From contig CALMES010000147.1 in the NCBI GenBank assembly GCA_937863435.1, positions 1,639 through 65,638 of the forward strand: DNA of 64,000 nt, written 5' to 3'. How positions within the stretch are numbered: position 1 is the first letter of the stretch; every line of letters begins with the position of its first letter. The stretch comes from an uncultured Candidatus Peregrinibacteria bacterium. GTDB taxonomy: Bacteria; Patescibacteriota; Gracilibacteria; Peribacterales; Peribacteraceae. The notes beneath the pieces were generated by a model. The model searched no databases. It was not told where the DNA came from and saw only the letters and a program-made list of their open reading frames with translations. This document shows, one piece after another, positions 1,826-62,553 of the stretch. A program made the position numbers and the translations under genes.

Positions 1826-4800
1826 ATGCGTCGGCGCACATTTTTGGGCAGCATAGGTCTCATGGGTCTTGCATTGCTGCAAAGCGCTCAGGCTGAGCAG
1901 TTTCAGCCAAAATATAACAATCCACAAACGTACGCCGAGGTGCAAAAGGGCATTGCCGAACTGAAGAAAAATATTGAGAGCGTCCAGTGCGGCGGCTGGC
2001 AGTCCGGCACAGAAGAAGAGGATGCAGCCAGTATGGGCGGCTGCAACGTACAGATACGCTGCGCCAGTGACAGTGCGGCGGCCACCGGCCCGGGAGACGG
2101 CAGCGATGAGGGCGGAGACATCGGCATCTGCTACGGCCGTGTCGCTTTCGCCAGCCGTAAAGATGCATCCGGCACCATGAATGTCTGTTCATCACGACCG
2201 AAAAACAACAAGGGCGAAACATACTTTCTTATTCATGAACTGGCCCATACGCTGCAATTCTGTCCGCATCGCGTGGGGGAGAGCGTGATTCATTCCCGCG
2301 AAACGTGCTGCAAATACGAGCGCGAAGCCTATCGCGCGCAATGCCAGGCAATGGCGGAAGACGGACAGCTTTCCGGCATTTCGATTGATCAGTGTGCCGA
2401 CTACGGCGCGTCCTATTTAAGCTGCGACAAATACGGTGTCAATGCGTGCGGCGTTCCGCCGATTGAGCCTGCAATGCAGATCACCATCCGCAAAGCGCTC
2501 TACGACGGCGGCGGCAAAACATGTGCGCAGGAAACAGCCGGACTCGACACAAAAAACCCGGACGCCAGCGGAGCCGACCCCCGTATCAAGGCGCTGCTGA
2601 AGCAAATCAACAAGCTGTCGGACGACCAGACCAAAAGCTCGAGCAGCACACCCTCCGCATTCCCGATGCCTGTTGTGACGGGCGCGCCCGGACGGGCAAA
2701 TCCCACCCCGACCGCGGACATAAAGCTGGGCGTCGGCGTACGCGCCGCATTCACCTTCCCCGACACGACCCTGGGCTTCAAGACCGCTTGTGACATCCAT
2801 CAGGCAAAAGACGCTCGCGGCAACGACATCAACCCTGAACGTCTGTGCATCAATGAAAATCCCGAACGAAACACTCCCAAAGACTGTAAAAAATTGTACG
2901 ATTTTCTGATCCGCCAGCAAAAGGACGCCAGACGCAATGACAACTGTGACGGCAGCAAGGAGAAGCTCTGCTTCGACTACACAGGCGTGTGTACCGGCCA
3001 GGGCTGCCGCACGCCGTTCTTTCCCGCATTTTCCTACACTCCACCCGTGTGTCCGCCACCGCCGCTGCCTGTGGTACCCGAGCAGGTGACGCAAAAACAA
3101 TCTTCGTTTTACCGCCACTACACAGTGACCGTTGATGCGCCGCAGAGTAATCACTGGGACGTAAGCGGGGAGTGTTACGACTGGTACATCGAGAAAGACC
3201 CTGAGCTGAACATGACCGTCAAAAAAAAGGCCGGCGGCAGTTACGCCGATACCAGGCCGTACGAACAGTGCGAGGTGAAAATCGGCAAAGACACATCGGC
3301 ATTCGAGAGCTCGTCTTCTTCTGCGGGCACGGCATCCGTGACACCGGGCGGTTCAGCCGGAAGTGCCGCTCCAAACATCACTCCCGAATGGAAACCGGCG
3401 AGTGACCAGAAGGGACAGTTCTGGCCGCAGAAAGGACTCGTCGGCCCGACCGATGATGACAGACAGCCGCGCACTGCCGCCGATCCGTGGGTAGCCGACG
3501 CGCAGACGAATCTGTCAATTCTGGACATGAAGAAAGCGAAAGATGTCACCAAAAACCTGGATGATGAAAACGACATCACGCCGTTTGCCACCAACCTGAT
3601 CGCCATCCGTCAAAAGGCCAGCAAGGCGATTGGGGCTCAGTCGCGTACCGACGATTTCGACGACACGGGCGAGCGCGGGTTTGTCAGCTGGTGGCTTACG
3701 CAGCAGCAGGAAATTATGAAGATTGTTCGCCAGCCGCAGGTACGACTGCTGCTTCCGTCGCGCTTCATTACCGGGCTCGATGAAACCGATGCGCTGTTTG
3801 CCTACGCCAAAGACAGCATTTCACAATCCAACGGCTACAGCGAAATCACCGTTCATGCCGGCTCCGAGGAGCTGGGCAATCTTCTGCAGTCGCTTCAGCA
3901 CAGTTTCTTCCTGCCGATTCAGGAGGTGCGCGTGCCTGTCATCGTGCCGCTGCTGTCGGAAACCGAAGCCAACACACGTATTGCCGAGTGGAAGTTATGG
4001 CAGCAGGAAAATCCTGCACACAAAGCCGATGCCGAGCCGTTCATTCACAAAATTGAAAGCTACCGCGACGCTGCGTTGCGGGTTCGCGACATGCGATCCG
4101 TCCTGCCGGCACGATCGAAGCAGCTGCTCACAGTCCAGAAGCAGATCCGCGGATTCTATGCCAGCTGGTATCTGCAGAACGCCAAGCGCGTCCAGCAATG
4201 GTCGCAGGTGAACGTCGTGCGCACGCAGATCAAGAAAACATGGAATACCATGGCAACAGCCCTGCTCGACGCATCGGCGTGCCAGCTGCAGTGGTGCAGC
4301 AATCAGCGCTACTCGCTGGCGGTTTACTCGCTGCTCGACGGATGGTTCCGCAAAACAGACAGAATACTGTTGAGCGCCACCGACCTCTCCAGTCTGCGGT
4401 ATCGTCCGCCCCGCGATCAGTCGATTGATTTTTCGTGGTTGCAACTGGGGTCAGGATCCAGTCTGCAGATGCCGGTGCTGTGGCCGGTACAAGTGCGTCT
4501 GACCATCCCCCTGCCTCCCCACAGCCTGAATGCGACACTGCCGGATATCGACGATTATCCCGACGTTCCGCAGTACGCCGATAACTACGCGGACTTGTTT
4601 GGCAGCATGCCGGTCCCCGACGTGCGTTTTCCTGCCGGCATCATTCCCCGCAACGAGGATTTTTCGGATTTTGCCATCAGCGATGCCTATCTGGTACCGC
4701 CCGTGGAGCGTGAAGACGTCCTCACGCAGGCACAGCAGATGCTTGATGCCCTGTCTTCTTCGTTTCAGGGCGATGACACCAGCCGCGACAATCTGAAGGG

Positions 4801-5245
4801 CGCTTACTGCCGTTTTGCCAACAGTATTCTGGAGGCACCCAATCCCGATGCGGGCAGCGACAGGCGTATCGTGCATATCGAGAATGATCTTCAGGAGCGT
4901 ATCGCCCGCCTGTTCTCACGCTTTATGCCCAACCGCGACAATGATTTCCGCGGCAAGGCAGACCGGCTCGCCGCGACGCCCGCACCGTCCCCCTGCCTCG
5001 ACGATGTGCCGTGTGCTCCTGCTCCCGGCGAAAGGCGGATCCGCGACAGCTGGCAGTGGACCGTCCGGTCGATGGCAACCGACATCCAGACTACCTACGA
5101 AGTACTGCGCGACAGCATGCTGCCGGCAATCGACCGCAATCCGTATCTGGATGCCGCCCGCAGCGTCCTTGTGCGCAGCATGCCGCTGGTGCTGCTGCCA
5201 CTCACCTACGACCTGTCACCATCCCTCCCTTCTTCCAACCCCTGA
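1826..5245 (+). CDS. large exported Cys-rich protein with HExxH (zincin-like) motif, otherwise unknown
   Basis: The N-terminus MRRRTFLGSIGLMGLALLQSAQA is a Tat-like RRxFL signal. HELAH is encoded at 2234-2248 inside a Cys-rich segment. A TATTAT hexamer at 1813-1818 lies 7 nt before the ATG. Confidence 0.75.
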   Translation: MRRRTFLGSIGLMGLALLQSAQAEQFQPKYNNPQTYAEVQKGIAELKKNIESVQCGGWQSGTEEEDAASMGGCNVQIRCASDSAAATGPGDGSDEGGDIGICYGRVAFASRKDASGTMNVCSSRPKNNKGETYFLIHELAHTLQFCPHRVGESVIHSRETCCKYEREAYRAQCQAMAEDGQLSGISIDQCADYGASYLSCDKYGVNACGVPPIEPAMQITIRKALYDGGGKTCAQETAGLDTKNPDASGADPRIKALLKQINKLSDDQTKSSSSTPSAFPMPVVTGAPGRANPTPTADIKLGVGVRAAFTFPDTTLGFKTACDIHQAKDARGNDINPERLCINENPERNTPKDCKKLYDFLIRQQKDARRNDNCDGSKEKLCFDYTGVCTGQGCRTPFFPAFSYTPPVCPPPPLPVVPEQVTQKQSSFYRHYTVTVDAPQSNHWDVSGECYDWYIEKDPELNMTVKKKAGGSYADTRPYEQCEVKIGKDTSAFESSSSSAGTASVTPGGSAGSAAPNITPEWKPASDQKGQFWPQKGLVGPTDDDRQPRTAADPWVADAQTNLSILDMKKAKDVTKNLDDENDITPFATNLIAIRQKASKAIGAQSRTDDFDDTGERGFVSWWLTQQQEIMKIVRQPQVRLLLPSRFITGLDETDALFAYAKDSISQSNGYSEITVHAGSEELGNLLQSLQHSFFLPIQEVRVPVIVPLLSETEANTRIAEWKLWQQENPAHKADAEPFIHKIESYRDAALRVRDMRSVLPARSKQLLTVQKQIRGFYASWYLQNAKRVQQWSQVNVVRTQIKKTWNTMATALLDASACQLQWCSNQRYSLAVYSLLDGWFRKTDRILLSATDLSSLRYRPPRDQSIDFSWLQLGSGSSLQMPVLWPVQVRLTIPLPPHSLNATLPDIDDYPDVPQYADNYADLFGSMPVPDVRFPAGIIPRNEDFSDFAISDAYLVPPVEREDVLTQAQQMLDALSSSFQGDDTSRDNLKGAYCRFANSILEAPNPDAGSDRRIVHIENDLQERIARLFSRFMPNRDNDFRGKADRLAATPAPSPCLDDVPCAPAPGERRIRDSWQWTVRSMATDIQTTYEVLRDSMLPAIDRNPYLDAARSVLVRSMPLVLLPLTYDLSPSLPSSNP

Positions 5246-5991
5246 TGCTGCGCCGTCTTTCAGTAACCGGCTTTCTGCTTCTTCTGCTCACTGCGCACTC
5301 GCCGTCTGCAGCGGCACAAACATCCGCGCCTTCGCCAGACGAAACGCGTACCGCCTGCCGCAATCGCATGTTCAAGGAGCTGGCGGCAGTGCACGATGAA
5401 TACCGCAGCGTCATATTCGGCAGTATCCAGGACAAAGACGGCAATGTTGTCGTCAAAGGCGGAGGGTCGGGAACCGTCGTCCGGCAGGGAATCCTGGAAG
5501 AGCGCGGCCGTCTGACCTCCGAACTGGTTGCGCCGATTATGGAAAGCTACCGCGCCTACCGCTGCCGCAGTCTTGCCGTCTGCAAGGTCCTGCAGGAATC
5601 CTTCAGTCATACCAATATGAAAGAGGCTGTACAAGTGCACACTCTCGGTTGCCAGCCGCAGGAGATCGAGCCGTACGAGGAATGTTTTTTCGGCACCGCC
5701 AAGAATGCCAAAGCGCGCCTGCCGCAAAGCGATGTACAGGCTCTGGGAACGGAATGTGACGTACTGGTGCAAGACACACTCACTATGGAGCGTGCCGTTT
5801 TGCGCACGGCCGTGGCGTACGACAGCGGCTACCGCGGTCTGCTCCAGTTTTCAGGCATGATGAACATGCTTCTCGATGCCACTGCGCGCTTCGCGTTTCC
5901 ACCGCTGCGCGACATGATCAACCTGCTGGGCAAACTGCACCAGATTCCGTGCTACATCGGTCAGTGTGATATGCGCAAAGACCTCCGATAA
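5245..5991 (+). CDS. exported hypothetical protein (248 aa)
   Basis: The signal peptide is MLRRLSVTGFLLLLLTAHSPSAAAQ. The ATG shares one base with the upstream TGA (TGATG at 5243-5247). Confidence 0.65.
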   Translation: MLRRLSVTGFLLLLLTAHSPSAAAQTSAPSPDETRTACRNRMFKELAAVHDEYRSVIFGSIQDKDGNVVVKGGGSGTVVRQGILEERGRLTSELVAPIMESYRAYRCRSLAVCKVLQESFSHTNMKEAVQVHTLGCQPQEIEPYEECFFGTAKNAKARLPQSDVQALGTECDVLVQDTLTMERAVLRTAVAYDSGYRGLLQFSGMMNMLLDATARFAFPPLRDMINLLGKLHQIPCYIGQCDMRKDLR

Positions 5992-5993
5992 TC

Positions 5994-6914
5994 ATGCCGA
6001 AAAAAACTCCCGTCACTACCGGCGCGACCGTCCGATCCGCCTCCGCAGCGAGGCAGGTAATGCAACGCATGCAGACAGTTGTGCGCAACAATCCGCTGCT
6101 GAGCGGCATTATTCTGGCAACCGTCGTGATTGCGGTGGGAACCAATGTGCTGCTGCACGCGGACCTGACAGGCGGCGGTAAGGATGGCGGCGGCACGGAA
6201 GCAGAACAAAGAAGGAATTTGAGAGCCTGCTCATCCAGCGGCACCGTCTTTGCCGGACTGACACCCAAAGAAGTGACGGAAAAATTCAGAAGCGACATGT
6301 CTCTGGTTGTCCAGGAACGCCAGGACCTGCTCATCAAGCCGTCGCTATGGACATGTGCGACGGACGACGGCGCCGGCACAGATCCTCCCATGCCGCAGCT
6401 GACGGCAATGGCCACAAACAAAATGCCGGCGTGGACCATCCGTACCGGCAAAAACACCTACGAAACGAAGCCGGTCCGCTTCGCCGATTTCTCGACTATC
6501 GTGATGGAATACGAGCGCAACTACGAATGCACCCTGTCGGAATTCCAGGGGAACGCACTCTCTGTTGTGAGCAATGATCTGGATGACTACGGTCTGCAAA
6601 ATCCGCAGGAAAAAAGCATCAGCCTGCTGCATATCGACAGCGGTCTTGGCGCGCGCATGAATCGCTTTTCGCAGACGATGCAGAACGAACGCCGGCGTGC
6701 GCGCATAGCTGTCGAGCGGACCGTCACCACTCTGCGCTCGATGGAGATTGCCGCGCCGCTTACCACCCGCATGCAATGCCTGGTCCGCCAGCAGCTCGAC
6801 CTGCGCAGTCTTATGAGCCTGCTTGCCGACACCATGAGCTGCATGCCACGCATCTGGGATGCCGCGACATCGCTCCATGACCGCTCATCCAGTGCCTCCA
6901 CCACGAATCCCTAA
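5994..6914 (+). CDS. N-terminally membrane-anchored hypothetical protein (306 aa)
   Basis: The TM helix LLSGIILATVVIAVGTNVLL follows a basic N-terminus. The gene starts 2 nt after the upstream stop. Confidence 0.65.
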   Translation: MPKKTPVTTGATVRSASAARQVMQRMQTVVRNNPLLSGIILATVVIAVGTNVLLHADLTGGGKDGGGTEAEQRRNLRACSSSGTVFAGLTPKEVTEKFRSDMSLVVQERQDLLIKPSLWTCATDDGAGTDPPMPQLTAMATNKMPAWTIRTGKNTYETKPVRFADFSTIVMEYERNYECTLSEFQGNALSVVSNDLDDYGLQNPQEKSISLLHIDSGLGARMNRFSQTMQNERRRARIAVERTVTTLRSMEIAAPLTTRMQCLVRQQLDLRSLMSLLADTMSCMPRIWDAATSLHDRSSSASTTNP

Positions 6915-8729
6915 ATGAAACACCTCTCGTCTGTTGCCATCGGCGCCATGATCTTCCTCCTGCCGGCGGCAGGAATGGCTGAATCCATCTTCGACACTTT
7001 CTACAACGAAGCGGCGCAGACGATTGACGGCACGCCGGTCAGTGACGCCATCGTACAATTTACCATTGATCAGATGCGATTGTGGGGGCCTCGCGGTATT
7101 GTACTGACCGCCGAGGATATCCGCCTCGCTCAGCTGGGAGATACTAAAGTGTGTCTCGGTAAAAAAGATCGTAATGGGGATACTATCCCGCCGATGAGCA
7201 GCGGCCTGGGTGCGTATACCTGCGACGGACTGAAGCAGGCTATAAAAGCCCTCATCGAAAGCGAGAGGCAGGCCCAACTGCTTGGCGACACACTCATCAC
7301 GATTGCAAACGGCAATGAAATGGCGATTGCCGACGAAGCGCACCGCGGATCCAATGTCGGTCAGCTGACCGCCACCTTCGGACGCCTGTGGAGCGGGACC
7401 GGCAGCCAGGCGGAAGCATGGCCGACGGACGCCGGCGATGCGGTGACCCAGCTGGAAAGCGCTCTGTCTGACGAACAGAAAGATCTGGACGCGATCATGC
7501 TCCGGTTTCACCACGGCTACTTCCGCGACGCGCGCGAGAATGACCCGCGCTTCCGCGACATAGGACCAAAAACCCGCGACGCGCTCGAAGCGATTGCCAG
7601 CCGGCTGAATATTGCGGGCGACACGCGCAAAACCGGAGACATTGCCACGCCGGTTCTCAAAACAAAAAATGTGACGCTGTGGGCACGCAAAGACGACATC
7701 GGTTTGCAGTGGACCTATCCGACGCATCTGGAACGCATGAACATTCAGGCTGCATGGGACTACCCGCAGCGCGCAGAGGGCGGACAGTCACTGGCCTATC
7801 CGTACGCGTACCGGGGCGAACCGAGGGCGGGTCAGGCATACAACATTGCAAGTCCGCTGTGCAGCCGCAGCCAGGGGCGTTTCGGCTTCCTCTGCCGACC
7901 GCTGCCCGCGGCATCCGGTTGCAACAGCACAACGGGGAGCGGAGCGCTCAGCAGCATTACCCTGACACGCTGCAGTCACACGATAACCGAGACACCCCCC
8001 GGTACCATGCAGCTGTGTTCCGGTGCCCTGCTTCTGTACAAAGACACCGGCAAGGCCGTAGGCGACCTCCAGCCTGGCGACAAGGCCGATCCGAAAGACA
8101 TCTGCTCGCCTGAAAGCAATATTCTGTACCAGGACGACACGACGCAGCATGCCTGCTATATCAGCTCCTGCCTGCGCCAGTCTATGAGCGGGCACACGAT
8201 TATCCCTCTGCGCAATACGACACTCTCCACAGAGGTGGCGGCACCGTTCCATGCGTTTGAACGGAATGATCCGCAACTGGGACTGTATGCCGAGATGAGC
8301 AGCAGCAACACTCCGGTTATCCTGCCGCCGTACCTGGGGCTGGACCTTGTGGCACTCTTCGAGCGGGATTACTGCGCGCAGAACGGGCTTCCGCCGGGCC
8401 CGCTTGCCGGCTACTGCAGCTATCAGAACAATCGGCGCGACGCATCGCCGCTTGCCCAGCTGAGCGCCATGTTCGGCTCCTACACGCAGGAGGCGGCGGA
8501 TCTCGCCAGCGACCTTGATCAGACCGCCGCACTCGGTGCGGCAACCGGCTACCGCCTCTCGCTCGACCAGTCGCTGCCCATTTACCGGACAACCGCCGCG
8601 TCACTGGCGCAAACCGTCCGCACTATCGCCAACCTGTTTAACGAACTCAAGAGCGCCCCTCTCACGCGCCAGCTCTGTCCCTGGATCGGCGCGCCGCAAG
8701 ACACCACCCTCACCCCTGTCGAACCATGA
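6915..8729 (+). CDS. exported Cys-rich hypothetical protein (604 aa)
   Basis: The signal peptide is MKHLSSVAIGAMIFLLPAAGMA. The ATG directly abuts the upstream TAA (6912-6917). Confidence 0.7.
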   Translation: MKHLSSVAIGAMIFLLPAAGMAESIFDTFYNEAAQTIDGTPVSDAIVQFTIDQMRLWGPRGIVLTAEDIRLAQLGDTKVCLGKKDRNGDTIPPMSSGLGAYTCDGLKQAIKALIESERQAQLLGDTLITIANGNEMAIADEAHRGSNVGQLTATFGRLWSGTGSQAEAWPTDAGDAVTQLESALSDEQKDLDAIMLRFHHGYFRDARENDPRFRDIGPKTRDALEAIASRLNIAGDTRKTGDIATPVLKTKNVTLWARKDDIGLQWTYPTHLERMNIQAAWDYPQRAEGGQSLAYPYAYRGEPRAGQAYNIASPLCSRSQGRFGFLCRPLPAASGCNSTTGSGALSSITLTRCSHTITETPPGTMQLCSGALLLYKDTGKAVGDLQPGDKADPKDICSPESNILYQDDTTQHACYISSCLRQSMSGHTIIPLRNTTLSTEVAAPFHAFERNDPQLGLYAEMSSSNTPVILPPYLGLDLVALFERDYCAQNGLPPGPLAGYCSYQNNRRDASPLAQLSAMFGSYTQEAADLASDLDQTAALGAATGYRLSLDQSLPIYRTTAASLAQTVRTIANLFNELKSAPLTRQLCPWIGAPQDTTLTPVEP

Positions 8730-10276
8730 AGCGCCTTCTTGTCATTGCCGGCCTCCTGCTGCTGCCAGCATCTGCTCTGGCGGCAGGACAACCCGCGCTG
8801 TCGCCATGGGTCCAAACCATTCTCGACAAAGCAGACAAGGGGATTGCCGTCGCCGCCAGACGTCCGGCCGATGAAGCCTGCCGCAGCGAACAGGATCCTC
8901 TCAAAAAAGCCCGGCTCAGGCAGACAGCGATTACGGAAGCGCAAAACGTCCTGCGCAAAGGCATTGATATCCGCACGCAGGTGAGTCTGGAGGCGCGCTC
9001 GTTGTTTGAACAGAACGTCTGTTTCCGCAGCGATGTCCGACTGGTTGAGGCCAAGATGCAGGAGGTGCGACAGGCAATGATCGACCACATCGACTCGTGC
9101 AATCTGGTCGGCGCAAACGTGCTTGGCAGCGTCTACTCCCTGCTCTCGCTGGCGCAAAAATCGCTTGTAACCGGCGGACTGGATCCGACCTATCGCGACA
9201 ATCTGGCGCGCCAAACGTACTTCTTCGAGAGCGAAGAGCTAGTCACAACACCGGGCACTCCGGTCGCACAGGACGATACATCCTCGGCTGCTCCGTCGTG
9301 CCCGTTTACCAGCGACTACGGCCCGCACTCCTACGCCACCGCACAAAGCCTGGAATCCGAAGGCACGCTGAGCTTCGGATGCGATGAAACCGTCATCCAG
9401 ACGCTGCCGGATACCCTCAAGAATGAATGGGAGAGACAGCATGCGTTTATGGCCGACATGAGCACGATTGCCGGGTCCATCAATGCCGCCATGCAGGCCT
9501 TTATCACCACCATGAACAGCACCGTTTCATACATCCGGCATGGCGCGCCGCCGGACATAAGCGACGACGCCCCCATTCGTCCGTCCGATGTCCGTCACGG
9601 CAAAGTCGACGGCTGTCTGGCGCTTGATGAGAACGAAGCGGGCAGCGAGGCGGCGCGTGACTACGCCGATGATTTCTCTGCGGCACCGCGCACGGATACC
9701 GATGCAATCTTGCCGCTGGGCCTTCTGTTCCGTCCGGCGTACGACTACTTCTCGCTCTTTCAAAATCCGCTCACGCTCCTGCAGCGCAGCGCCGACACCA
9801 AAGCCCGGCAGGGCTACGAGCAGGCGCTTGTCGGCCGCACTCTCTATGCAGGCAATGATACCGGCACGAAGCTGCTTTCGACTGTTGCCATGACAGAGCG
9901 GGACGAAAAAGACCTGCGCGGCATTTCTGCCAATCAGGCGCGGGAGCAGGCGATTGTGAATTCATGGAGCGCCGACGCCATACAGCGCAGCAGCGAGGCA
10001 TTTTCTGAGCTGGACGGCAGCGTGAAGGCCCTTGGCAATGTGGTAAAGGAGAAGGGAACGCTGCCGCTCTACATTCGTGACGTGGCGTATTTCCTCCTGC
10101 GCTCGTGCGTCGACGGCCACTGCACCAAGAATCTGGATACGATTTTGAAGCGCGTGCTCAATCCGTACTGCTACCCGTATTCATCGGATCTCTACAAAGA
10201 AGACAACGTGCCCGAGAAGTGCTTCTGTCAGGATCAGGAATGGGGAGGATACGCCGAGTATTGTATGGCGACGTAA
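8726..10276 (+). CDS. exported Cys-rich hypothetical protein (516 aa)
   Basis: The signal peptide is MKRLLVIAGLLLLPASALAA. There is a 4-nt ATGA overlap with the upstream gene. Confidence 0.7.
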   Translation: MKRLLVIAGLLLLPASALAAGQPALSPWVQTILDKADKGIAVAARRPADEACRSEQDPLKKARLRQTAITEAQNVLRKGIDIRTQVSLEARSLFEQNVCFRSDVRLVEAKMQEVRQAMIDHIDSCNLVGANVLGSVYSLLSLAQKSLVTGGLDPTYRDNLARQTYFFESEELVTTPGTPVAQDDTSSAAPSCPFTSDYGPHSYATAQSLESEGTLSFGCDETVIQTLPDTLKNEWERQHAFMADMSTIAGSINAAMQAFITTMNSTVSYIRHGAPPDISDDAPIRPSDVRHGKVDGCLALDENEAGSEAARDYADDFSAAPRTDTDAILPLGLLFRPAYDYFSLFQNPLTLLQRSADTKARQGYEQALVGRTLYAGNDTGTKLLSTVAMTERDEKDLRGISANQAREQAIVNSWSADAIQRSSEAFSELDGSVKALGNVVKEKGTLPLYIRDVAYFLLRSCVDGHCTKNLDTILKRVLNPYCYPYSSDLYKEDNVPEKCFCQDQEWGGYAEYCMAT

Positions 10277-10320: not shown

Positions 10321-10376
10321 TCCCAACTACCAATACTCCAATTCCCAAATTGGTAGTTGGTTATTGGTAGTTGGGA
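10321..10376. repeat. 15-bp perfect inverted repeat of CCAACTA-type words (hairpin after operon)
   Basis: TCCCAACTACCAATA at 10321-10335 pairs with TATTGGTAGTTGGGA at 10362-10376. An inner CCAATT/AATTGG hairpin is also present. Confidence 0.8.
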
Positions 10377-10443: not shown

Positions 10444-10989
10444 TTGTCGTGGAGCACGACCGAAGAAACGCTCAAGAAGTATTTTACGCCGATTGCGTCT
10501 GTCGTGTCGGTCCGGCTCACGAAAGATCCGAAGACCGGCAAATCCAAAGGATACGCTTTCATCGAATTCCAAACGCCGGAGATTGCCAAAAAAGTGATGC
10601 GCCAGTGCGATGGCAAAAATTGCGATGGCCGGACAATGCGCATCGATATCGCAAAAGAAGAACCGGCGGAGCCGTGCAAGCTGTATGTATCAGGCTTGCC
10701 GCAGGGCATTTCGGAAGAAGCGCTGATCCGTCATTTATCGCAGGCCGGACAACTGGTGAGCGCCAAGATCGCGCACGAGGCCGGCAGCACCCGCAACCGC
10801 GGCTTTGCGTTTGTGGAAACAGAGACCGACGCAGATGTAGAGGCGATTATTGAGGCGCTGGATGGATCGATTTTGAATGATTCGAGACTGAGTATTAAAC
10901 GTGCGCGACCGAAGACGGATAAGGCGCCGATTGAGGGGAAAAGAAGAGGCGAGCAAGACACTAAAAACGCTAATGCAATTGAAAACTAA
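10444..10989 (+). CDS. RNA-binding protein with two RRM domains
   Basis: RNP-1 motifs KGYAFIEF and RGFAFVET are present. The track start is a TTG inside the first RNP-2 motif. The in-frame upstream sequence encodes IFIAG, so the true start is probably ATC at 10417. Confidence 0.8.
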   Translation: MSWSTTEETLKKYFTPIASVVSVRLTKDPKTGKSKGYAFIEFQTPEIAKKVMRQCDGKNCDGRTMRIDIAKEEPAEPCKLYVSGLPQGISEEALIRHLSQAGQLVSAKIAHEAGSTRNRGFAFVETETDADVEAIIEALDGSILNDSRLSIKRARPKTDKAPIEGKRRGEQDTKNANAIEN

Positions 10990-11899: not shown

Positions 11900-14800
11900 A
11901 TGAATCCCCAAGACTTCGTCCACCTACATACGCACTCCACTTTCTCTCTTCTGGAGGCTTTGCCTACGCCCGACGAGATTGTGCTGCGTGCCAAGGAATT
12001 GGGGCACGACGCGGTGGCGTTGTCGGACAAGGGCTACACCTACGGACTCATCCAGTTCTACAAAGCCTGCAAGAGCCATAAGATCAAACCGATTCTGGGG
12101 CTGGAAACGTACATTGCCGCACGCACGCGCCACGACAAAGACAGCTCATCCGACACACGGCGCTACCCACTGGTGCTGCTGGCCGAAACAGACGAAGGCT
12201 ACGAAAATCTGCTCAAACTTGCGACCAAGGCGGCGCTCGAAGGCATGTACTACAAGCCGAGAGTGGACAAAGAACTACTGCAGATGCACGGCAAAGGACT
12301 GATTGCGCTCAGCGGTCCAATTTCTGGTGCCATTCCACAGGCGGCGCTGGCCGAAGACCGCGAAAGAGTAAAGGCGCTCGTGGATGAGTACCGTTCGTAC
12401 TTTGGTCACGACAATTTGTATTTCGAACTGATGGATTTCCCAAACGTGCCGGGACAAGCGGAAGTGAATCAGCAACTGATTGCACTTGGCAAAGAATTCG
12501 GCGTGCCGCTGGTTGCCACCAACAATAGCCATTATTGCCGCCTGGAAGACGCCGAAGCCCACGACGTGCTGCTGTGCATTCAGAAGAACGCCAATGTGAA
12601 CGACGCCAGCCGCTTCTCCATGCGCGACAGCGATTTCTCCATGCCCACAAGCGAAGAGATGATGGCCAAATTCGCCCACGTGCCCGAAGCGATTGCCAAC
12701 ACGCGCGTGATTGCCGACCGCTGCACCATCAACATTAAGTTCGGCTCGTATAAAATTCCGAAATTCCCGATTACAACCGGAGAGACAGAGGAGGAGCTGC
12801 TGCGCACCAAATGCGAAGAAGGCTTGCGCGTACGCTATCCGCATGCACAGTCGAGGACAGCTCCGCACAATGGAGAGCAGTTTAGCCCTAAGCAGATCTG
12901 GGACCGATTGGATTACGAGCTGGAGACCATCAACACTATGGGATTTTCGGGGTACTTTCTGATTGTCGCCGACTTCATCGGCGAAGCCAAACGACGCGGC
13001 ATTACCGTGGGTCCCGGCCGTGGATCGGCGGCCGGTTCGATTGTGAGTTACGTGCTGGACATCACCACCCTCGATCCGCTGGAACATGGGCTGCTGTTCG
13101 AGCGCTTTCTGAATCCCGAACGCATCTCCATGCCGGATATCGACGTTGACTTTGCCGATACGCGCAGAGACGAAGTGCTGGAATATGTGCGGGCGAAATA
13201 CGGCACCGATCGTGTGGTCCAGATCTGTACGTTCGGAACACTGGCTGCCCGCGCAGCTGTCAAAGATGTCGGCCGCGCATTTGGTGTGTCATTCAACGAA
13301 ATGAATGCGTTGGCCAAGCTGATTCCCGAGCGTCCGGGCACAACACTCGACGAAGCGCTGGCAACCGACGAGCTGCAGGCCGCCATCAAGCACGATGAAA
13401 ACTACAAGAAAATTATTGATATCGCACTCAAGCTGGAAGGCAAATCGCGCCACGTGTCGGTGCATGCCTGCCGCGTTGTCATCACACCCGAACCGGCGAC
13501 CACCTACACCGCCATTCAGCGTGCGCCGAAAGACGAGAATACGATTATTACGCAGTACGACGCCAAGCCGCTGGAATCTTTGGGGCTGCTCAAAATGGAC
13601 TTCCTGGGCCTTAAGAACCTGACGATCATCCAGACGGCACTCGAAATTATCGAGCGCATGCACGGTATCAAAATTCATATTCCGGCGACGGGGATGAACG
13701 ACAAGAAAACCTTTGAGCTGCTGGCGCGCGGCGAAACAACCGGCGTGTTCCAGCTGGAATCCGCCGGCATGCGCCGCTACTTAAAGCAGCTCAAGCCGTC
13801 GGCCTTCGATGACATTACGGCCATGGTGTCTTTGTACCGCCCGGGTCCGATGGACAAGATTCCGGATTACATCAAATGCAAAAACGGCGAGAAGGAAGTG
13901 AAGTATCTGCATCCGGATTTGGAACCGATTCTCAAGCCCACGTACGGCGTTGGTATTTACCAGGAACAGATTCTGGAAATGGCGCGCACATTCGCCGGAT
14001 TCTCTCTGGCCGAAGCCGACTTGCTGCGCAGAGCCATCGGTAAGAAAATCAAGAAAGAGCTGGACGCACAGCGCGAAATATTTATCCGGAAAGCCAAAGA
14101 AAAAGGCTACACCGAGAAACTGGCTGTGACATTATTCGACGATGTGATTACGCCGTTTGCCGGTTACGGTTTCAACAAATCGCACGGTGCCTGTTACGCG
14201 CGCGTTGCCTACGAAACGGCATTTTTGAAAGCGCATTACCCAACAGAATTCATGGCTGCCCTGCTGAGTAGCGAGCAGGGTGATACCGATCGTATTTCCA
14301 TCGAAATCGAGGAAACACGCGCAATGGGACTGGAAGTTCTGCCGCCGGATATCAATGAATCGCTGTCGGACTTTACGGCGCTCGAAGGCCGCAAAATCCG
14401 CTTTGGACTGACAGCCATCAAAGGAGTCGGCGAAAGCTCCGTTGCCCAGATTATCGCTATTCGCGATGAGGTGGGCGGCAAGGGGAAGTTTGCCAGCCTG
14501 GAAGATTTTGCGCTGCGTGTGCCGAGTAAAATTCTCAACAAGAAACTTTTGGAATCGCTCGCCAAATCCGGTGCGCTGGATTCGCTCGGTGAACGCGCCA
14601 TACTTGTCGGGCAGTATCAGCGGATTGCCGAATTCAGTAAATCCGCCGGCGACAGTGCGGCGTCTCAAGTGGATCTTTTTGAATCGCTCCATACCGCATC
14701 CGATGCGTCGAAAATCTCCTTCGATCCGGTAACACCCGCAACCGCTCAGCAGAAATTGCTGTGGGAAAAAGAGACGCTCGGCCTCTACGTTTCCAGCCAT

Positions 14801-15670
14801 CCGCTCGCCGGACTTCGCAAGTACATCAGGAAAAAGGCACGACTCATCAATACTGTCACATCCGAAGACAGTAACAAGCGCGTCACGCTTGCCGGTATTA
14901 TCGAAAGCGTGAAACCCATCCGCACCAAGAAAGGAGACATGATGGCGATTATCAGTATTGAGGATGGCACCGGAAAAATTGAAGTAACACTGTTTCCAAA
15001 AGTGTATACGCAGGCGATGGATATTCTGGAGCGACCGGACACCGTGCTGGTGATTGCCGGAACGATCGATATGCGCGGCGGTGTTCCACAACTGCGTGCC
15101 GAAGCGCTCAAGCGCGCATCACTCACGACGATGATCGAAAAGGCCAGGGAGCTGGGCTCCTACGACGAAGAGGAGGCGAAAAACTGGCGCCCGAACCTGC
15201 GCGAGAATGAAGAAAAGATCGAAACCGTGACAGACGAAGGCGATGTGATCGTCCAGACAGTCGAGAAATCTGCAACGACAAGCAAGTCTGCATCGCCTAT
15301 GGCAAGTGACGGCATACACGGCCCGCTGGGACTATGGATTCGTGGCGGCATGGATACGGAGTGGGCAAGTGCCAAGCTGGGGATTAGTGATGAGAAGAAA
15401 GGAGGAGAGGAGGAGAGGTTGGAAAAAGAGGATGCCGAAGACGCACTCAAGGCACATCATCAGCCTGCTATTTCCATTCACACCATCACGCTTCCACCCA
15501 AAGCCCCGCGCGATTTACTCATTGCGCTCAAGCAGATTTTCGAAACGTTCCCGGGCAGCGAAAAGGTGCAGCTGAATATCGGCGGAAAAATTGTGCCGGT
15601 ACCGATGACGATTACGGTGTCGCCGGTGCTGGATAAGAAGGTGGAAGAGGCGGTGGGGAAGTATTCTTAA
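11900..15670 (+). CDS. dnaE: DNA polymerase III alpha subunit
   Basis: The N-terminal PHP motif FVHLHTHSTFSLLEA is present. Polymerase core motifs are conserved along 1256 aa. Confidence 0.95.
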   Translation: MNPQDFVHLHTHSTFSLLEALPTPDEIVLRAKELGHDAVALSDKGYTYGLIQFYKACKSHKIKPILGLETYIAARTRHDKDSSSDTRRYPLVLLAETDEGYENLLKLATKAALEGMYYKPRVDKELLQMHGKGLIALSGPISGAIPQAALAEDRERVKALVDEYRSYFGHDNLYFELMDFPNVPGQAEVNQQLIALGKEFGVPLVATNNSHYCRLEDAEAHDVLLCIQKNANVNDASRFSMRDSDFSMPTSEEMMAKFAHVPEAIANTRVIADRCTINIKFGSYKIPKFPITTGETEEELLRTKCEEGLRVRYPHAQSRTAPHNGEQFSPKQIWDRLDYELETINTMGFSGYFLIVADFIGEAKRRGITVGPGRGSAAGSIVSYVLDITTLDPLEHGLLFERFLNPERISMPDIDVDFADTRRDEVLEYVRAKYGTDRVVQICTFGTLAARAAVKDVGRAFGVSFNEMNALAKLIPERPGTTLDEALATDELQAAIKHDENYKKIIDIALKLEGKSRHVSVHACRVVITPEPATTYTAIQRAPKDENTIITQYDAKPLESLGLLKMDFLGLKNLTIIQTALEIIERMHGIKIHIPATGMNDKKTFELLARGETTGVFQLESAGMRRYLKQLKPSAFDDITAMVSLYRPGPMDKIPDYIKCKNGEKEVKYLHPDLEPILKPTYGVGIYQEQILEMARTFAGFSLAEADLLRRAIGKKIKKELDAQREIFIRKAKEKGYTEKLAVTLFDDVITPFAGYGFNKSHGACYARVAYETAFLKAHYPTEFMAALLSSEQGDTDRISIEIEETRAMGLEVLPPDINESLSDFTALEGRKIRFGLTAIKGVGESSVAQIIAIRDEVGGKGKFASLEDFALRVPSKILNKKLLESLAKSGALDSLGERAILVGQYQRIAEFSKSAGDSAASQVDLFESLHTASDASKISFDPVTPATAQQKLLWEKETLGLYVSSHPLAGLRKYIRKKARLINTVTSEDSNKRVTLAGIIESVKPIRTKKGDMMAIISIEDGTGKIEVTLFPKVYTQAMDILERPDTVLVIAGTIDMRGGVPQLRAEALKRASLTTMIEKARELGSYDEEEAKNWRPNLRENEEKIETVTDEGDVIVQTVEKSATTSKSASPMASDGIHGPLGLWIRGGMDTEWASAKLGISDEKKGGEEERLEKEDAEDALKAHHQPAISIHTITLPPKAPRDLLIALKQIFETFPGSEKVQLNIGGKIVPVPMTITVSPVLDKKVEEAVGKYS

Positions 15671-16666: not shown

Positions 16667-17290
16667 ATGCACATCCTCCCTGCCACAGCCGAAAATATCG
16701 CGAAAGCTGCCGATATCATTCTCGCGGGCGGCATTGTTGGCCATGCCACCGAAACCTGTTACGGATTGGCATGCGATATGACGAACCTGAAAGCCGTGAC
16801 AAAACTCTTTGACGTCAAACAAAGATCGCACGAAAAATCAGTATCGGCTCTGTTTTCGAGCATCGAAGAATCGGAAAAATTTGTGCTATGGACCGAGCAG
16901 GCGAGAGAGCTTGCGAAGAAATATTTACCCGGCCCGCTCACCATTATTCTGCGCGTACGACCGGACACCTCCTCACCACTTTTTCCGGCTGCTGAAAATC
17001 CGGCAATTGATGACCTGACATTGGGTGTACGCATATCCTCGCATCCGGTTGCCATGCAGCTTTCGGCGCTCTGCAAGCGGCCCATCAGCACGACGTCGGC
17101 GAACTTGGCGAGCCTTCCAAGCCCGTACAGTATTGCTGACATCGTTGCTCAATTTGAAGGCCAATCGTTGCAACCAGACATTCTCCTCGACTCGGGTGTA
17201 CTTCCGTTTTGCCCTCCGTCGACGATTGTTGATTGCTCAAAACAGGAGATGCAAATCGTTCGTCAGGGCGATATCGACGTACGAATCTAG
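16667..17290 (+). CDS. tsaC: L-threonylcarbamoyladenylate synthase (YrdC/TsaC family)
   Basis: The YrdC motif GGIVGHATETCYGLACD is present. A TACACT hexamer at 16655-16660 lies 6 nt before the ATG. Confidence 0.85.
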   Translation: MHILPATAENIAKAADIILAGGIVGHATETCYGLACDMTNLKAVTKLFDVKQRSHEKSVSALFSSIEESEKFVLWTEQARELAKKYLPGPLTIILRVRPDTSSPLFPAAENPAIDDLTLGVRISSHPVAMQLSALCKRPISTTSANLASLPSPYSIADIVAQFEGQSLQPDILLDSGVLPFCPPSTIVDCSKQEMQIVRQGDIDVRI

Positions 17291-17432
17291 AATTACGAAT
17301 TACGATAATTTTGTTATTTATAGTTAACAAAATAGATAGTTTGATTGTCTTATTTTATCTATTAATCAATACTATTGCCTGGTAATCAACCATGCCAACT
17401 TGTCGTAATTCGTGATTCGCAATTCGTAATTC
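17290..17432. repeat. inverted AATTACG-word repeats flanking a 97-nt AT-rich spacer
   Basis: GAATTACGAATTACGA at 17290-17305 pairs with TCGTAATTCGTGATTC at 17403-17418 with 1 mismatch. A further TTCGTAATTC lies at 17423-17432. Confidence 0.7.
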
Positions 17433-17467
17433 ATTACCGACGCGAGTGTCACTCGCACCAATTTTCC

Positions 17468-17476
17468 TGCTATCAT
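17468..17476 (+). promoter_or_regulatory. extended -10 box TGCTATCAT for nrdR
   Basis: It lies 6 nt upstream of the ATG at 17483. Confidence 0.5.
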
Positions 17477-17482
17477 CCCCTC

Positions 17483-17944
17483 ATGCACTGTCCCCGCTGC
17501 AAACACGACGACACGGCTGTTATCGATTCCCGCGATACCGAAGAAGGCCGCGCCATCCGCCGGCGCCGTGAGTGTGAAAAATGCAAGCATCGCTTCACTA
17601 CGTTCGAGCGCCAGGAAATGTCGTCGCTCATTGTGGTCAAACGCGACGGCACGCGCGAACCGTATAGCCGCACCAAACTCGAACGCGGCATTTGGGTCGC
17701 CTGCACCAAGCGTCCGGTGAGCCAGAAGGCGATTGATGACATGCTGAGCGAACTGGAAGAAAAGTGGGGCAAAAACCGCGAGGAAGTCGAAAGTTCCGCC
17801 ATCGGGAAAGATGTCATGACCGCACTCGCCGCCATCGACAAAGTCGCCTACATCCGCTTTGCATCGGTGCATCGCGAATTCAAGGATGTGGAGGAATTTA
17901 AGAAAGAATTGGGGAAGTTGTTTGGTGGCAAAGAAGAAAAATAA
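17483..17944 (+). CDS. nrdR: transcriptional repressor NrdR
   Basis: The N-terminus MHCPRCKHDDTAVIDSRDT...RRRRECEKCKHRFTTFE carries the zinc ribbon. An ATP-cone domain follows. Confidence 0.9.
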   Translation: MHCPRCKHDDTAVIDSRDTEEGRAIRRRRECEKCKHRFTTFERQEMSSLIVVKRDGTREPYSRTKLERGIWVACTKRPVSQKAIDDMLSELEEKWGKNREEVESSAIGKDVMTALAAIDKVAYIRFASVHREFKDVEEFKKELGKLFGGKEEK

Positions 17945-25048: not shown

Positions 25049-25143
25049 GAAAACCCTCTTTGAGGGAACTACCAATTTCCAATAAGCTAACTCCCAAGCA
25101 GGATTTGGCTATTTTTTGGTAGTTGGGAATTGGTGATTGGGAA

Positions 25144-28100
25144 TTACTCCGCTACCACTTTTGCTTCTACCAGTTTCTTTTCTTTCTGAGACTTCTTCTG
25201 AAGTGCTGCAATTTCAACGGTCAGTTCCGGCAAATAATCTTTCGTGCCGGCCTTGCGGATCAAATCTGCTTCGTTGATACGCAGGGTTTGACTAGAGATA
25301 CGCCACTGCGGATTGACTTGCAGCAGCTGCATGATTTCTGCGGCTGTCACACGCGGATTGAGGGTGAGAACCACTTCGCGCTTGCCTTTAGACACCTCAT
25401 CGCTCTTGACGCGTGTCACACCACTTCTGCGGCACGCCATTTTGAGACGAATGATATTGAGCAGGTGAATAACTTGCTGCGGCAACTTGCCGTATTCTTC
25501 CAGAAGATCATTTTCGAACTCAGCCAAAATCGCCTCATCCTCTGCGCCAGCAAGCTTCTGGTAGATGCCGATTTTCTCCTGTTCTTCCGGAATATAAAAC
25601 GACGGAATGAGCGCTTCAAACGGCAGAATGATTTCGATGTTCTGCACTTCTTCCTCCACTTTACCGCCAGCCTTTAGCTCTTCGACAGCACTCTTGAGCA
25701 TGCGCAGATAATGACTCACGCCGACTGTCTGCATGTTGCCCGATTGATTGGCGCCCAAAATTTCTCCCGATCCACGGATTTCCAAATCGCGCATGGCGAT
25801 CTGAAAGCCGGAACCGAGTTCGGATGCCTCGACAATCGCGCGCAGGCGCTTTTTGGCGTCGTCCTTGAGACGCTGGGAATGATACAGGAAGTACGAATAC
25901 GCCTGAATCGGACCACGGCCAACGCGGCCGCGCAGCTGATACAGCTGCGACAAACCGAACTTTTCCGCTTCGTTTACAATGAGGGTGTTCGCCCGCGCCA
26001 AGTCGATACCGTTTTCGATGATGGTGGACGACACCAGCACATCAAACTTTCCTTCTTTGAACGCCATGATGCGCTCTTCGAGTAATTCCGGTTTGAGCTG
26101 GCCGTGCGTCACCACAAACTTGGCTTCCGGCACCAGTGCTCGGAGCTTCATGGCGAATGCATCGATCGTTTGCACGCGGTTATGCAGCACGTACACCTGT
26201 CCTTTGCGTGCCAATTCTTTCTGAATCGCCTCCCGGATAAGCGAATCGGAATACTTGCGCACTTCGGTAATAATCGGCAGGCGGCCCGGCGGGGGAGTGG
26301 TGATAATGGTGATGTCACGTAGCTTATGAAGACCAAGGTTGAGTGTGCGTGGAATCGGTGTGGCTGTGAGCGTGAGAATATCCACAGCCGCACGCATGGA
26401 CTTCATGATTTCTTTCTGCTTTACCCCGAAGCGCTGCTCCTCATCGATGATGACAAGTCCTAAATTGAAGAATTTTACATCTTCCTGAAGCAATCGATGC
26501 GTACCGACCACAATATCCAAGTCACCTTTGCGCAATTTTTCGAGCACAACCGCCTGCTCCTGCTTGCTACGGAAACGCGAGAGCATATCGATGCGGATAT
26601 TAAAGCCCTTCATGCGCTCCAGTAAGCTCTTGTAATGCTGATCAGCCAAGATGGTGATCGGACTGAGCAGGGCCACCTGCTTGCCGCCCTGCACCGCCTT
26701 AAATGCCGCGCGCATGGCAACTTCTGTTTTTCCGAATCCCACATCTCCACACACCAGACGATCCATCGGATGATCACCCTCCATATCCCGTTTTAGGTCT
26801 TCAATAGCCTTCATCTGGCCCGGCGTCTCTTCGTAGGGGAATGCCTCATCAAACTTCTTCTGCGCCTCTGTATCGTCACCGTAACGATGTCCTTTGGCCT
26901 TGGCACGTTTGGCATAGATCTCCAGAAGCTCTTTGGCGATGCGCTGGGTTTCTTCGGAAATTTTCTTGGTGATGCGCTTCCAGTCGGCAGCACCCAGGCG
27001 CGTGAGTACCGGCTCATCCCCTTCTTCATGCACGAATTTGCTGAGTTTATCCGCCTGATCGACCGGCACAAACAATTTGTCGTTTTCGGCGTACGTAATC
27101 TCCAGATATTCGCGCGCCAGGCCATCCACTTCCTTCTGCGTCATTCCTTCAAAACAGCCGATACCATGTTCCATGTGCACCACGAAATCACCAACCTGCA
27201 GAGAGGTAATAAAGTCGAGAGCCAGGCGCTGTACTGAGCGCTGCTTGTTTTCTTTTTTGAGCGAGAATATTTCGCGGTCAGTAATGAGGGCGCATTTCAA
27301 ATCCGGATTCTGGAGTGAGTGTGGCAGCAGTGCATCTTTATCAGCCGGCACAATCGTAATCGCGCCTTTGCGGCGTTCGCCGGTCAAAAACTGCACTTTC
27401 TCCTCCGTTAAAATGGCTTCCAGCTCAACTGCGCGCTTGGTGACGATAATGAGTGACCATTCCTGATGTAACTTATCTTTTACATCGTTGATAAAATCAG
27501 GAAGGGTGTAGAACTTCAGAACCGATAAATAGCGCACGTGCACATGACCCTCTTCCGACTGCGGAAAGGAAGTGAAGTGCAGTGTGTCTACACCTTTAAG
27601 TGACTCGATTTCATCCTGATCATCAAGTACCAACAATTTATTTTTAGGAAACTGACGCGCGAGCGGTGCTGTCTTTGTCCAGGTGAGTGGATACAAGACA
27701 ATTGTTCCTTCGTGATCTGCCGTGATTCCTAAATTATAACGATCAACTTTTGAGATTTTTTCCACCGTATCAAAAGCGAACTGGATGCGGAAAGAATGAT
27801 CTGCACCCACCGGATAAATATCGAGCGTGTCACCGGTGCGACGGTATTCCCCTGTGGATAAATACGGATCATTGCCGTGTGAGTAACCACAATCAATGAG
27901 CTGACTGAAAAGATCTGTGAAATCAATTTTCTGACCAACCTTCAATTCAATTGCACGTTCTTCCATTTCGGAAAAAAGCGGCAATTCACGCTCCCATAAA
28001 CCTTTCTCAATGAGCGAGACACCGCCTCCATGAAACAGATGCACCAGGCTGGCGATATGGTCAGCAGTGACTTCCTCTTCCGGAAAATGAATCACATCTG

Positions 28101-43297: not shown

Positions 43298-43390
43298 GGA
43301 ACGCGAATGACGAATCACGAATGGTTTAATCAATACTTCCCGCAGACGGAGCATCGTGCTCCGGGCGTATATCGGGCATTAAGAGCGTCG

Positions 43391-48862: not shown

Positions 48863-48967
48863 AAAAGCGATAGGCGAGTAGCGGTAAGCGATAAGTCTCC
48901 TTACCGCTAGCCGCTTCCAGCTTACCGCTTCTTAATACTAATGCAATAAACCAATCATTTAGTCCAA

Positions 48968-55648: not shown

Positions 55649-55715
55649 AATTACGAATTACGAATTACGAATTACGAATTACGAATTACGAATTACGAAT
55701 TACGAATTACGAATT
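55649..55715. repeat. heptanucleotide microsatellite (AATTACG)x9 plus partial unit
   Basis: There are nine perfect tandem copies at 55649-55711 followed by AATT. The tract lies in a convergent intergenic region. Confidence 0.95.
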
Positions 55716-56779: not shown

Positions 56780-56946
56780 TGTGCGAGAGGAGTGGGAGGA
56801 TAGCAAGTACGGTAATTACCAATTACCAAAGACCAACTACCAAACATCAATTATTATACTGTTGGGAGTTGGCGTATTGGCAGTTGGTAGTTTTCCAGAA
56901 AGCATCTTCTACAGCCACCGCTCCTGTATCATGTTATTCTTTCACC

Positions 56947-62388: not shown

Positions 62389-62553
62389 CAGACCACCAGT
62401 TTCTAGTTTTTAGTTTCGAGGTTTTGATTCTTTTGGAAATTGGCAGTTGGAAGTTGGTAGTTCTCTTCTGATTCTTCTTAAGCCCTACTTCCTTCATATT
62501 CCTTGTAAAAATCGGCTTTCTCTGCTATCATAGTGAGATACTTTTGACAAAAA

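Follow-up and report, generated by a model that had tools for sequence, protein, structure and literature searches.

What is encoded by five tightly packed genes whose products all appear to be exported and none of which belongs to a familiar protein family? This question is raised by a stretch of 64,000 nucleotides (nt), called the window below, from contig CALMES010000147.1 of an uncultured Candidatus Peregrinibacteria bacterium (Peribacteraceae), in which five open reading frames (ORFs), designated g1 to g5, lie on the + strand at positions 1826-10276 (coordinates are window positions unless a related locus is named). From sequence comparison we propose, with a probability of roughly 60%, that g1-g5 encode one co-functioning, lineage-specific extracytoplasmic complex of Candidatus Peregrinibacteria. 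Our confidence in any specific role of the complex is far lower than our confidence in a co-functioning exported complex as such.

Conservation and synteny of the five-gene cassette

The largest of the five genes, g1 (1826-5245), encodes a predicted exported protein of 1139 amino acids (aa). It is followed by g2 (5245-5991; 248 aa counted from the ATG, predicted to be exported, with eight conserved cysteines), g3 (5994-6914; 306 aa, predicted to be membrane-tethered, with five conserved cysteines), g4 (6915-8729; 604 aa, predicted to be exported, a short form) and g5 (8726-10276; 516 aa, predicted to be exported, with eight fully conserved cysteines and a cysteine-rich C-terminus). The ORFs and their junctions were re-derived from the sequence and agree with a preliminary description of this DNA: g1 and g2 overlap by 1 nt, a gap of 2 nt separates g2 from g3, g3 and g4 abut with 0 nt between them, and g4 and g5 overlap by 4 nt. 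A longer, GTG-started ORF can be read at g2 from position 5011, and its extra part merely overlaps g1.

Relatives were gathered by a metagenome scan with a 13-sequence g1 alignment and by contig look-ups, and their ORFs were assigned by profile searches. It was found that the order g1-g5, the single strand and the overlapping or abutting junctions are kept at all of the approximately 27 related loci (cited by handles such as L001 where one has to be named) where the contig extends. Twelve complete operons were recovered besides that of the window, about 14 more loci are limited by a contig end and consistent with the same arrangement, and there were zero counter-examples. Gene-neighbourhood conservation had been named as a check in the preliminary description, and its outcome was strict, with g1-g5 collinear in every locus that offers enough DNA. 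The five-gene arrangement is beyond chance and recurs in every related locus examined, with g1 relatives reaching down to 22% identity. All five genes occupy the corresponding place in the genome whose g1 is 69% identical. In a distant Peribacteria genome, where identity is 22-29%, they again stand in order between ssb and dnaE, and their junctions overlap. Most junctions in 13 operons measure -4, -1, -8 or -11 nt, or fall between +1 and +6 nt. The relatives of g1 and g4 carry the taxon labels Candidatus Peribacteraceae, Peribacteria or Peregrinibacteria, and no second copy (paralogue) of the cassette proteins was found in the window.

The genomic position is conserved as well. The recurrent synteny runs lspA-ftsW-murG-ppi-gltX-x-murB-ssb, with ssb on the - strand, then g1-g5, then dnaE, so that the cassette almost always lies between a divergent ssb and dnaE; a search showed ssb divergent from g1 at 13 loci, and gene tables added further cases. 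In the window these two synteny anchors, both outside the unit, are ssb upstream (620-1645, - strand, two SSB domains) and dnaE downstream (11900-15670, + strand). All five proteins share one fast rate of divergence, two to three times that of the flanking housekeeping proteins: where SSB and DnaE keep 94-96% identity, the five have 67-73%, and where SSB and DnaE keep 60-65%, the five have 24-29%. This conservation of order, junctions and locus means that the cassette has long belonged to the core genome of Candidatus Peregrinibacteria (Peribacteria lineage) and has been passed down vertically.

Protein families and structure models

In an exhaustive profile search, the g1 family comprised 222 cluster representatives at E ≤ 1e-3, of which 151 still passed at E ≤ 1e-30; most are 900-1250 aa long. 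A word-indexed homologue search with g1, also when given a 68-sequence alignment, returned only three proteins and under-reports the family relative to the exhaustive search. The members share an N-terminal CGGW motif, a cysteine-rich module at aa ~320-480 and a conserved C-terminal core of ~630 aa. Both g1 (880-1836 aa) and g4 (600-990 aa) vary in length through variable insertions. The best conserved protein of the five is g2, for which 48 relatives were obtained; all of these lack a Pfam domain and an informative name, and one lies on a 1.39-Mb contig. In the g2-g5 families, the conserved positions are mainly Cys, Gly, Pro and Trp and do not form catalytic-looking motifs. At locus L030 (11608-12435) the fifth gene has only 275 aa and a faint match to DUF4215, a Myxococcus cysteine-rich repeat; possibly this is a g5 that has been truncated or has suffered a frameshift.

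Searches of Pfam, NCBIfam, PHROGs and PADLOC gave no match for any of the five core proteins, and none of the five family profiles found a relative in the sequences of PDB entries. No Pfam domain is present in the longest relatives of g1, g4, g5 and g3, and the six longest g1 relatives yielded just a sub-threshold collagen-repeat match. Single weak matches to Phage_portal_2, HTH_Tnp_2, NepR and thymidylate synthase (Pfam/NCBIfam) were taken as noise, as were those to monoacylglycerol lipase, RdRp L and fusion glycoprotein.

The AlphaFold2 model of g1, built from 68 diverse sequences, has a mean predicted local distance difference test score (pLDDT) of 83.7, a predicted template modelling score of 0.69 and 577 residues with pLDDT ≥ 90. 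It includes a predicted helical arm of ~100 residues (aa 712-820, encoded at 3959-4285 on the + strand) made of helices 712-728, 730-756 and 759-820, with pLDDT ~90-96. When this model was compared by Foldseek, no match at E ≤ 1e-3 was obtained, the best being E 1.1 in PDB and 0.02 in BFVD. The earlier impression that the proteins belong to no recognised family was thus upheld, since profile searches and the g1 structure search placed none of the five in a characterised family. Because the core proteins are without a family match or, for g1, a fold match, the cassette lies outside known systems as far as matches were found, and only an accessory domain of g1, described below, has a recognisable distant relative.

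The same description had taken a weak C-terminal motif as a hint that genes 2-4 are paralogues. This did not hold: profiles of 14-16 sequences gave hhalign probabilities of 0.07-3.6%, those of 3 sequences stayed at <1%, the C-termini of g2-g4 took part in none of the top alignments, and paralogy was rejected.

Export signals, membrane anchoring and cysteines

Export signals were judged from hydropathy and by-eye reading of the N-termini, and a signal peptide or N-terminal anchor was seen on all five products, as had been proposed. The N-termini of g1, g2, g4 and g5 resemble cleavable Sec-type signal peptides ending in A-x-A; that of g1 (1826-1894, + strand) reads MRRRTFLGSIGLMGLALLQSAQA, with EQ after the presumed cleavage site. 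In g3, a signal-anchor at aa ~34-58 (6093-6167, + strand) is preceded by an N-terminal tail of ~33 residues, and it is the sole hydrophobic segment of the five proteins besides the signal peptides. The g3 orthologues of four other lineages (L006, L017, L020 and L027) have a lipobox-like L-A-[AGS]-C in place of the transmembrane (TM) anchor. A lipobox of the form L-[AS]-[GA]-C is not present in the g3 of the window, whose anchor looks uncleaved.

A Tat-like RRRTFL in the g1 signal peptide had also been pointed out. The motif is present in the window, but an RRx-hydrophobic motif occurs in just 8 of 138 full-length relatives, and the corresponding position in the 69%-identical orthologue reads RQRTFF; Tat export was rejected because the twin-arginine motif is not conserved among g1 orthologues. 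Disulfide-reliant proteins are normally exported unfolded, which would make Sec the likelier route. Two further kinds of surface protein were considered and rejected. Neither an LPXTG-like motif outside the signal peptide nor a C-terminal hydrophobic segment was found in the five proteins, and the gene tables flanking the cassette loci contain no sortase gene, which speaks against a sortase-assembled pilus or surface protein. A type IV pilin or pseudopilin was likewise set aside, since there were zero pilin matches in Pfam and NCBIfam and the N-termini look like ordinary signal peptides.

The cysteine content of the five proteins is 1.6-3.2% (pooled 2.35%), compared with 1.31% in 30 other ORFs of the window, an enrichment of ~1.8-fold. 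The reported mean for the Peribacteria proteome is 1.67% (PMC4736985). The label 'cysteine-rich' in the preliminary description thus reflects an existing enrichment but overstates it, the level being near the lineage's already high mean. The outstanding trait is rather that nearly every cysteine is conserved across the five families. Conserved cysteines number five in g3 and thirteen in the g1 core, both odd counts, and one might speculate that an inter-subunit disulfide or a free thiol is involved. Bacteria of the Candidate Phyla Radiation (CPR) encode an MdbA-like extracytoplasmic disulfide oxidoreductase (PMC6744442).

The accessory zincin-like domain

The N-terminal part of g1 carries an insertion of ~225 aa (aa 59-283; 2000-2674, + strand), which appears as a gap in the 69%-identical orthologue and is missing from most relatives. 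A HELAH motif, reported in the preliminary description, was confirmed within it at 2234-2248 (+ strand; g1 aa 137-141, on a predicted helix at 131-145), outside the conserved g1 core, and represents a putative zinc-binding and catalytic motif. The accessory domain (~200 aa) is present in 8 of 152 g1 representatives, with HEL.H in every one. It is also found inside the long-form g4 (800-990 aa) of eight other loci from deeper clades; the g4 of the window has a short linker at aa ~368-397 where these long forms carry it. The domain never occurs in both g1 and g4 of one operon and never as a stand-alone gene within 10 kb, and it is missing from g1 and g4 alike in L001, L008, L010, L011, L012 and L033. 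Four of the g4 copies (L006, L027, L030 and L031) have lost HExxH.

In an alignment of 12 intact copies, the H, E and H of the motif are invariant, as are 11 cysteines, and a CCxxExEA motif lies on the next predicted helix, with C95, C96 and E99 (alignment numbering) invariant and A102 nearly so. In the window this second motif reads CCKYEREAY (2306-2332, + strand; g1 aa 161-169, on a predicted helix at 158-178), and Glu165 or Glu167 of g1 would be the candidate third zinc ligand. The g1 model has pLDDT mostly of 75-95 over aa 100-270, and in this part of the protein it arranges strands (74-80, 107-109 and 117-123) before the HExxH helix (131-145) and then the Glu helix (158-178). The accessory domain is putatively a zinc protease, catalysis being predicted from the motif.

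The preliminary description had felt a vague likeness to Atp23/M76-type zincins. Peptidase_M76 is indeed the best Pfam match among the domain relatives, but it was obtained for 3 of 12 copies, all below threshold: the scores are 19.9 bits (E 6.7e-4, for the domain of P0004), 15.9 bits and 12.6 bits against the PF09768 cut-off of 25.2. The best match covers profile positions 36-118 of 170, and the matches span ~85-105 residues of the 170-position profile. The resemblance therefore stands, and membership in the family does not, with all copies below 25.2 bits and none matched for the window copy. Almost all of the sub-threshold Pfam matches of the domain copies are to zincin families, with Peptidase_M91, eCIS_core, DUF6782 and YgjP-like ranking after Peptidase_M76. 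Among the weak matches of the g1 model in BFVD, small zincins (lethal factor, IrrE-like, SprT-like and M10; E 0.2-4) are over-represented; no zincin match for it was found in PDB by Foldseek.

The likeness to M76 (Atp23, PF09768) concerns the accessory domain only. Like Atp23, the accessory domain is small and would be an HExxH zincin with a conserved Glu on the next predicted helix, and both have many conserved cysteines, 11 invariant ones in the accessory domain and ten in Atp23, a protease that works in an oxidising compartment (PMC4951193). Both also belong outside the cytoplasm, Atp23 in the mitochondrial intermembrane space and the accessory domain, as predicted, in an extracytoplasmic location. 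They differ in that Atp23 is a free-standing protein whereas the accessory domain is an insertion in much larger bacterial exported proteins, and the similarity stays below the Pfam cut-off, without significant PDB or Foldseek support. A second role of Atp23, in assembly and independent of its protease activity, would have a parallel in the degenerate domain copies.

Flanking repeats, base composition and neighbouring genes

The preliminary description saw the unit as bracketed by perfect hairpins. Both exist: one at 1700-1751 has a perfect 17-bp stem (1700-1716/1735-1751) in the intergenic region between the divergent ssb and g1, and one at 10322-10375, after g5, has a 13-bp stem (10322-10334/10363-10375) with an alternative arm at 10349-10360. 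They are, however, built from period-7 repeats that recur at at least ten other intergenic sites of the window, and this dispersed heptamer-repeat class led us to reject the hairpins as operon-specific boundaries. The upstream hairpin is shared with L001, where an identical heptamer palindrome stands upstream of g1 (9859-9941), and is missing in L024 and L033. The downstream hairpin may act as a terminator; it is not followed by a T-run, and it was not among the calls of a terminator scan.

Short tandem arrays of 7-nt units, such as ACGAATT and TTGGTAG, occupy many intergenic regions and are often inverted, so that long hairpins can form. They were seen at 1735-1765, 10350-10374, 17280-17305, 17403-17432, 25123-25145, 43304-43322, 47994-48024, 48865-48895, 55649-55715 (9.6 perfect heptamer copies), 56814-56843 and 62398-62462. 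Such arrays look like a genome-wide repeat class that is REP-like (repetitive extragenic palindromic) or terminator-like.

The G+C content of the cassette is 0.589, against 0.475 and 0.504 in its flanks. The excess is smaller in most relatives and small or absent in many (L001, L020 and L030 were compared), and for this reason it is no pointer to horizontal transfer; it is probably due to amino-acid composition and not to a foreign origin.

Two replication genes, ssb and dnaE, thus frame an operon for exported proteins. Each ssb chain (~285-340 aa) has two SSB/OB domains in the window and in L001, L006, L024, L026-L031 and L033, and its gene is divergently paired with g1 in every case. Directly 3' of the cassette and before dnaE, the window has a gene for a small protein with two RRM_1 motifs (10444-10989, + strand), which is also present in L001 and is not universal among the other loci. 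In L024, a Y1-transposase-like gene (17191-17688, - strand; a weak match) lies between g5 and dnaE and is the sole trace of a mobile element at the locus.

Proposed mechanism and alternative explanations

In the mechanism that we propose, g1-g5 would be transcribed as one unit, and the overlapping stop and start codons would hold the products at a fixed ratio. All five would leave the cytoplasm via Sec, and their almost fully conserved cysteines would be oxidised to disulfides beyond the membrane. There, g3, through a TM anchor here and a lipid elsewhere, would fix the soluble g1, g2, g4 and g5 at the outer face of the membrane, with g1 serving as a large scaffold with its helical arm. The accessory Atp23/M76-like zincin on g1, whose HELAH and downstream Glu are intact, would most likely mature or trim a subunit or a bound substrate. 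The domain would be dispensable to the core function, because other lineages have it on g4, in degenerate form or not at all.

That the five proteins act together is suggested by their shared order, junctions and divergence rate, by a domain that moves only between g1 and g4, and by the single tethered member, g3. A domain exchanged between two proteins makes it likely that they cooperate, and so g1 and g4 probably work together; this exchange and the coordinated conservation are what point to a multiprotein assembly, as the preliminary description had called it. The core function is most likely housekeeping in the building or upkeep of the cell envelope or surface layer, favoured because the cassette is universal, single-copy and at a fixed core locus beside envelope genes.

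Several points weigh against this picture. The case for envelope housekeeping consists of universality, single copy and neighbourhood, and the immediate neighbours, ssb and dnaE, have no envelope role; the fast evolution of the five proteins would suit host interaction equally well. Translational coupling is suggested by junction geometry, and no purine-rich Shine-Dalgarno motif occurs within 25 nt before any of the five starts. Export of the products is predicted from N-terminal sequence. The fold comparison covers g1, set against PDB and BFVD, that is, solved and viral structures; the g4 model (16 sequences) is poor, with a pLDDT of 53.4, and its null result in Foldseek carries no weight. 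Finally, the window copy of the accessory domain has no match in Pfam even at E ≤ 10.

The main alternative to envelope housekeeping is contact with a host or partner, with the cassette encoding a surface adhesin complex of an episymbiont whose zincin domain acts on host-surface proteins. Of the rival explanations it survives best, although we regard it as unlikely. It would account for proteins evolving two to three times faster than their housekeeping neighbours, for the variable insertions in g1 and g4 and for the long arm of the g1 model. Attachment has been expected of cysteine-containing exported Peribacteria proteins (PMC4736985), and CPR-enriched families have been seen as tied to cell-cell interaction (PMC6744442). 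Against it, no known adhesion domain (Ig-like, lectin or FG-GAP) was found, even in the longest relatives. Adhesins are usually multi-copy and strain-variable and sit in variable loci, whereas this cassette is single-copy in the window, keeps all five genes everywhere and occupies a fixed core locus.

It is considerably less probable that no complex exists and that five proteins with separate tasks outside the cell (as exo-enzymes or scavenging factors, for example) merely share a promoter. Each protein does have its own export signal, and one has a putative protease domain. For unrelated activities, however, one would not expect the same order, tight junctions and a common divergence rate to persist down to 22% identity; the conserved positions, mainly Cys, Gly, Pro and Trp, do not look catalytic, the accessory domain moves solely between g1 and g4, and one member is tethered to the membrane.

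A horizontally acquired toxin, defence or phage-derived module, to which the raised G+C content and the inverted repeats on both sides might point, is very improbable and largely refuted by synteny: a phage or defence module was rejected because PHROGs and PADLOC were empty and synteny is fixed, with one insertion site and the same flanking genes in all lineages, horizontal transfer was rejected because divergence tracks that of SSB and DnaE, as in vertical descent, no integrase or transposase lies beside the cassette in the window, many relatives show little or no G+C excess, and the hairpins belong to a class present at many intergenic sites.

Relation to known systems and significance

Peribacteria invest in exported cysteine-containing proteins (PMC4736985). 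Those described as large and cysteine-rich in Candidatus Peribacter riflensis come from the same lineage as g1-g5 and, like them, have signal peptides, are unannotated and are presumed extracellular; their mean length is 1655 aa and their mean Cys content 7.2%, some are encoded in a cluster of 14 genes, and they differ from strain to strain (PMC4736985). The five proteins described here differ in having 1.6-3.2% Cys and in forming a fixed set at a conserved core locus, and no description of the cassette was found in the Peribacteria genome paper (PMC4736985) or the CPR protein-family survey. The window also encodes, at 31823-39112 (+ strand), a 2429-aa protein with a subtilase (Peptidase_S8) domain, 12 DUF11 repeats and 2.5% Cys, a giant surface protease like those reported from Peribacteria.

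A more distant comparison can be made with the compact operons for surface complexes in wall-less or reduced bacteria, such as the P1 adhesin operon of Mycoplasma pneumoniae, whose large, exported, lineage-restricted proteins are co-transcribed and thought to assemble on the surface. The likeness, a compact operon for lineage-restricted exported proteins, is one of analogy, and no relation in sequence or fold is claimed. P1-type systems are adhesins with known host receptors, whereas conservation of the g1-g5 cassette extends over a whole phylum.

The Peregrinibacteria are an uncultured phylum of bacteria with small genomes that are believed to rely on other cells. Within them, the five genes probably build a surface machine of a new kind. 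A bolder form of this proposal, which we hold tentatively and put somewhat short of an even chance, is that the cassette would be a new-fold extracytoplasmic machine essential to all Peregrinibacteria, which either replaces missing envelope or division functions or docks partner cells, and between whose subunits an Atp23-like domain has moved. Since no solved or viral structure significantly matched the confident model of g1, this protein may represent a new fold. Through the accessory domain, Atp23-like disulfide-rich zincins, whose known home is the intermembrane space of mitochondria, would also be found on the cell surface in a bacterial phylum, and intact and degenerate copies of the domain, side by side, provide a natural experiment on protease versus scaffold roles. 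The cassette is a concrete target for proteomics, cryo-electron tomography and heterologous expression, and an exported set of five proteins kept by every examined member is a strong candidate for core envelope or partner-contact biology.

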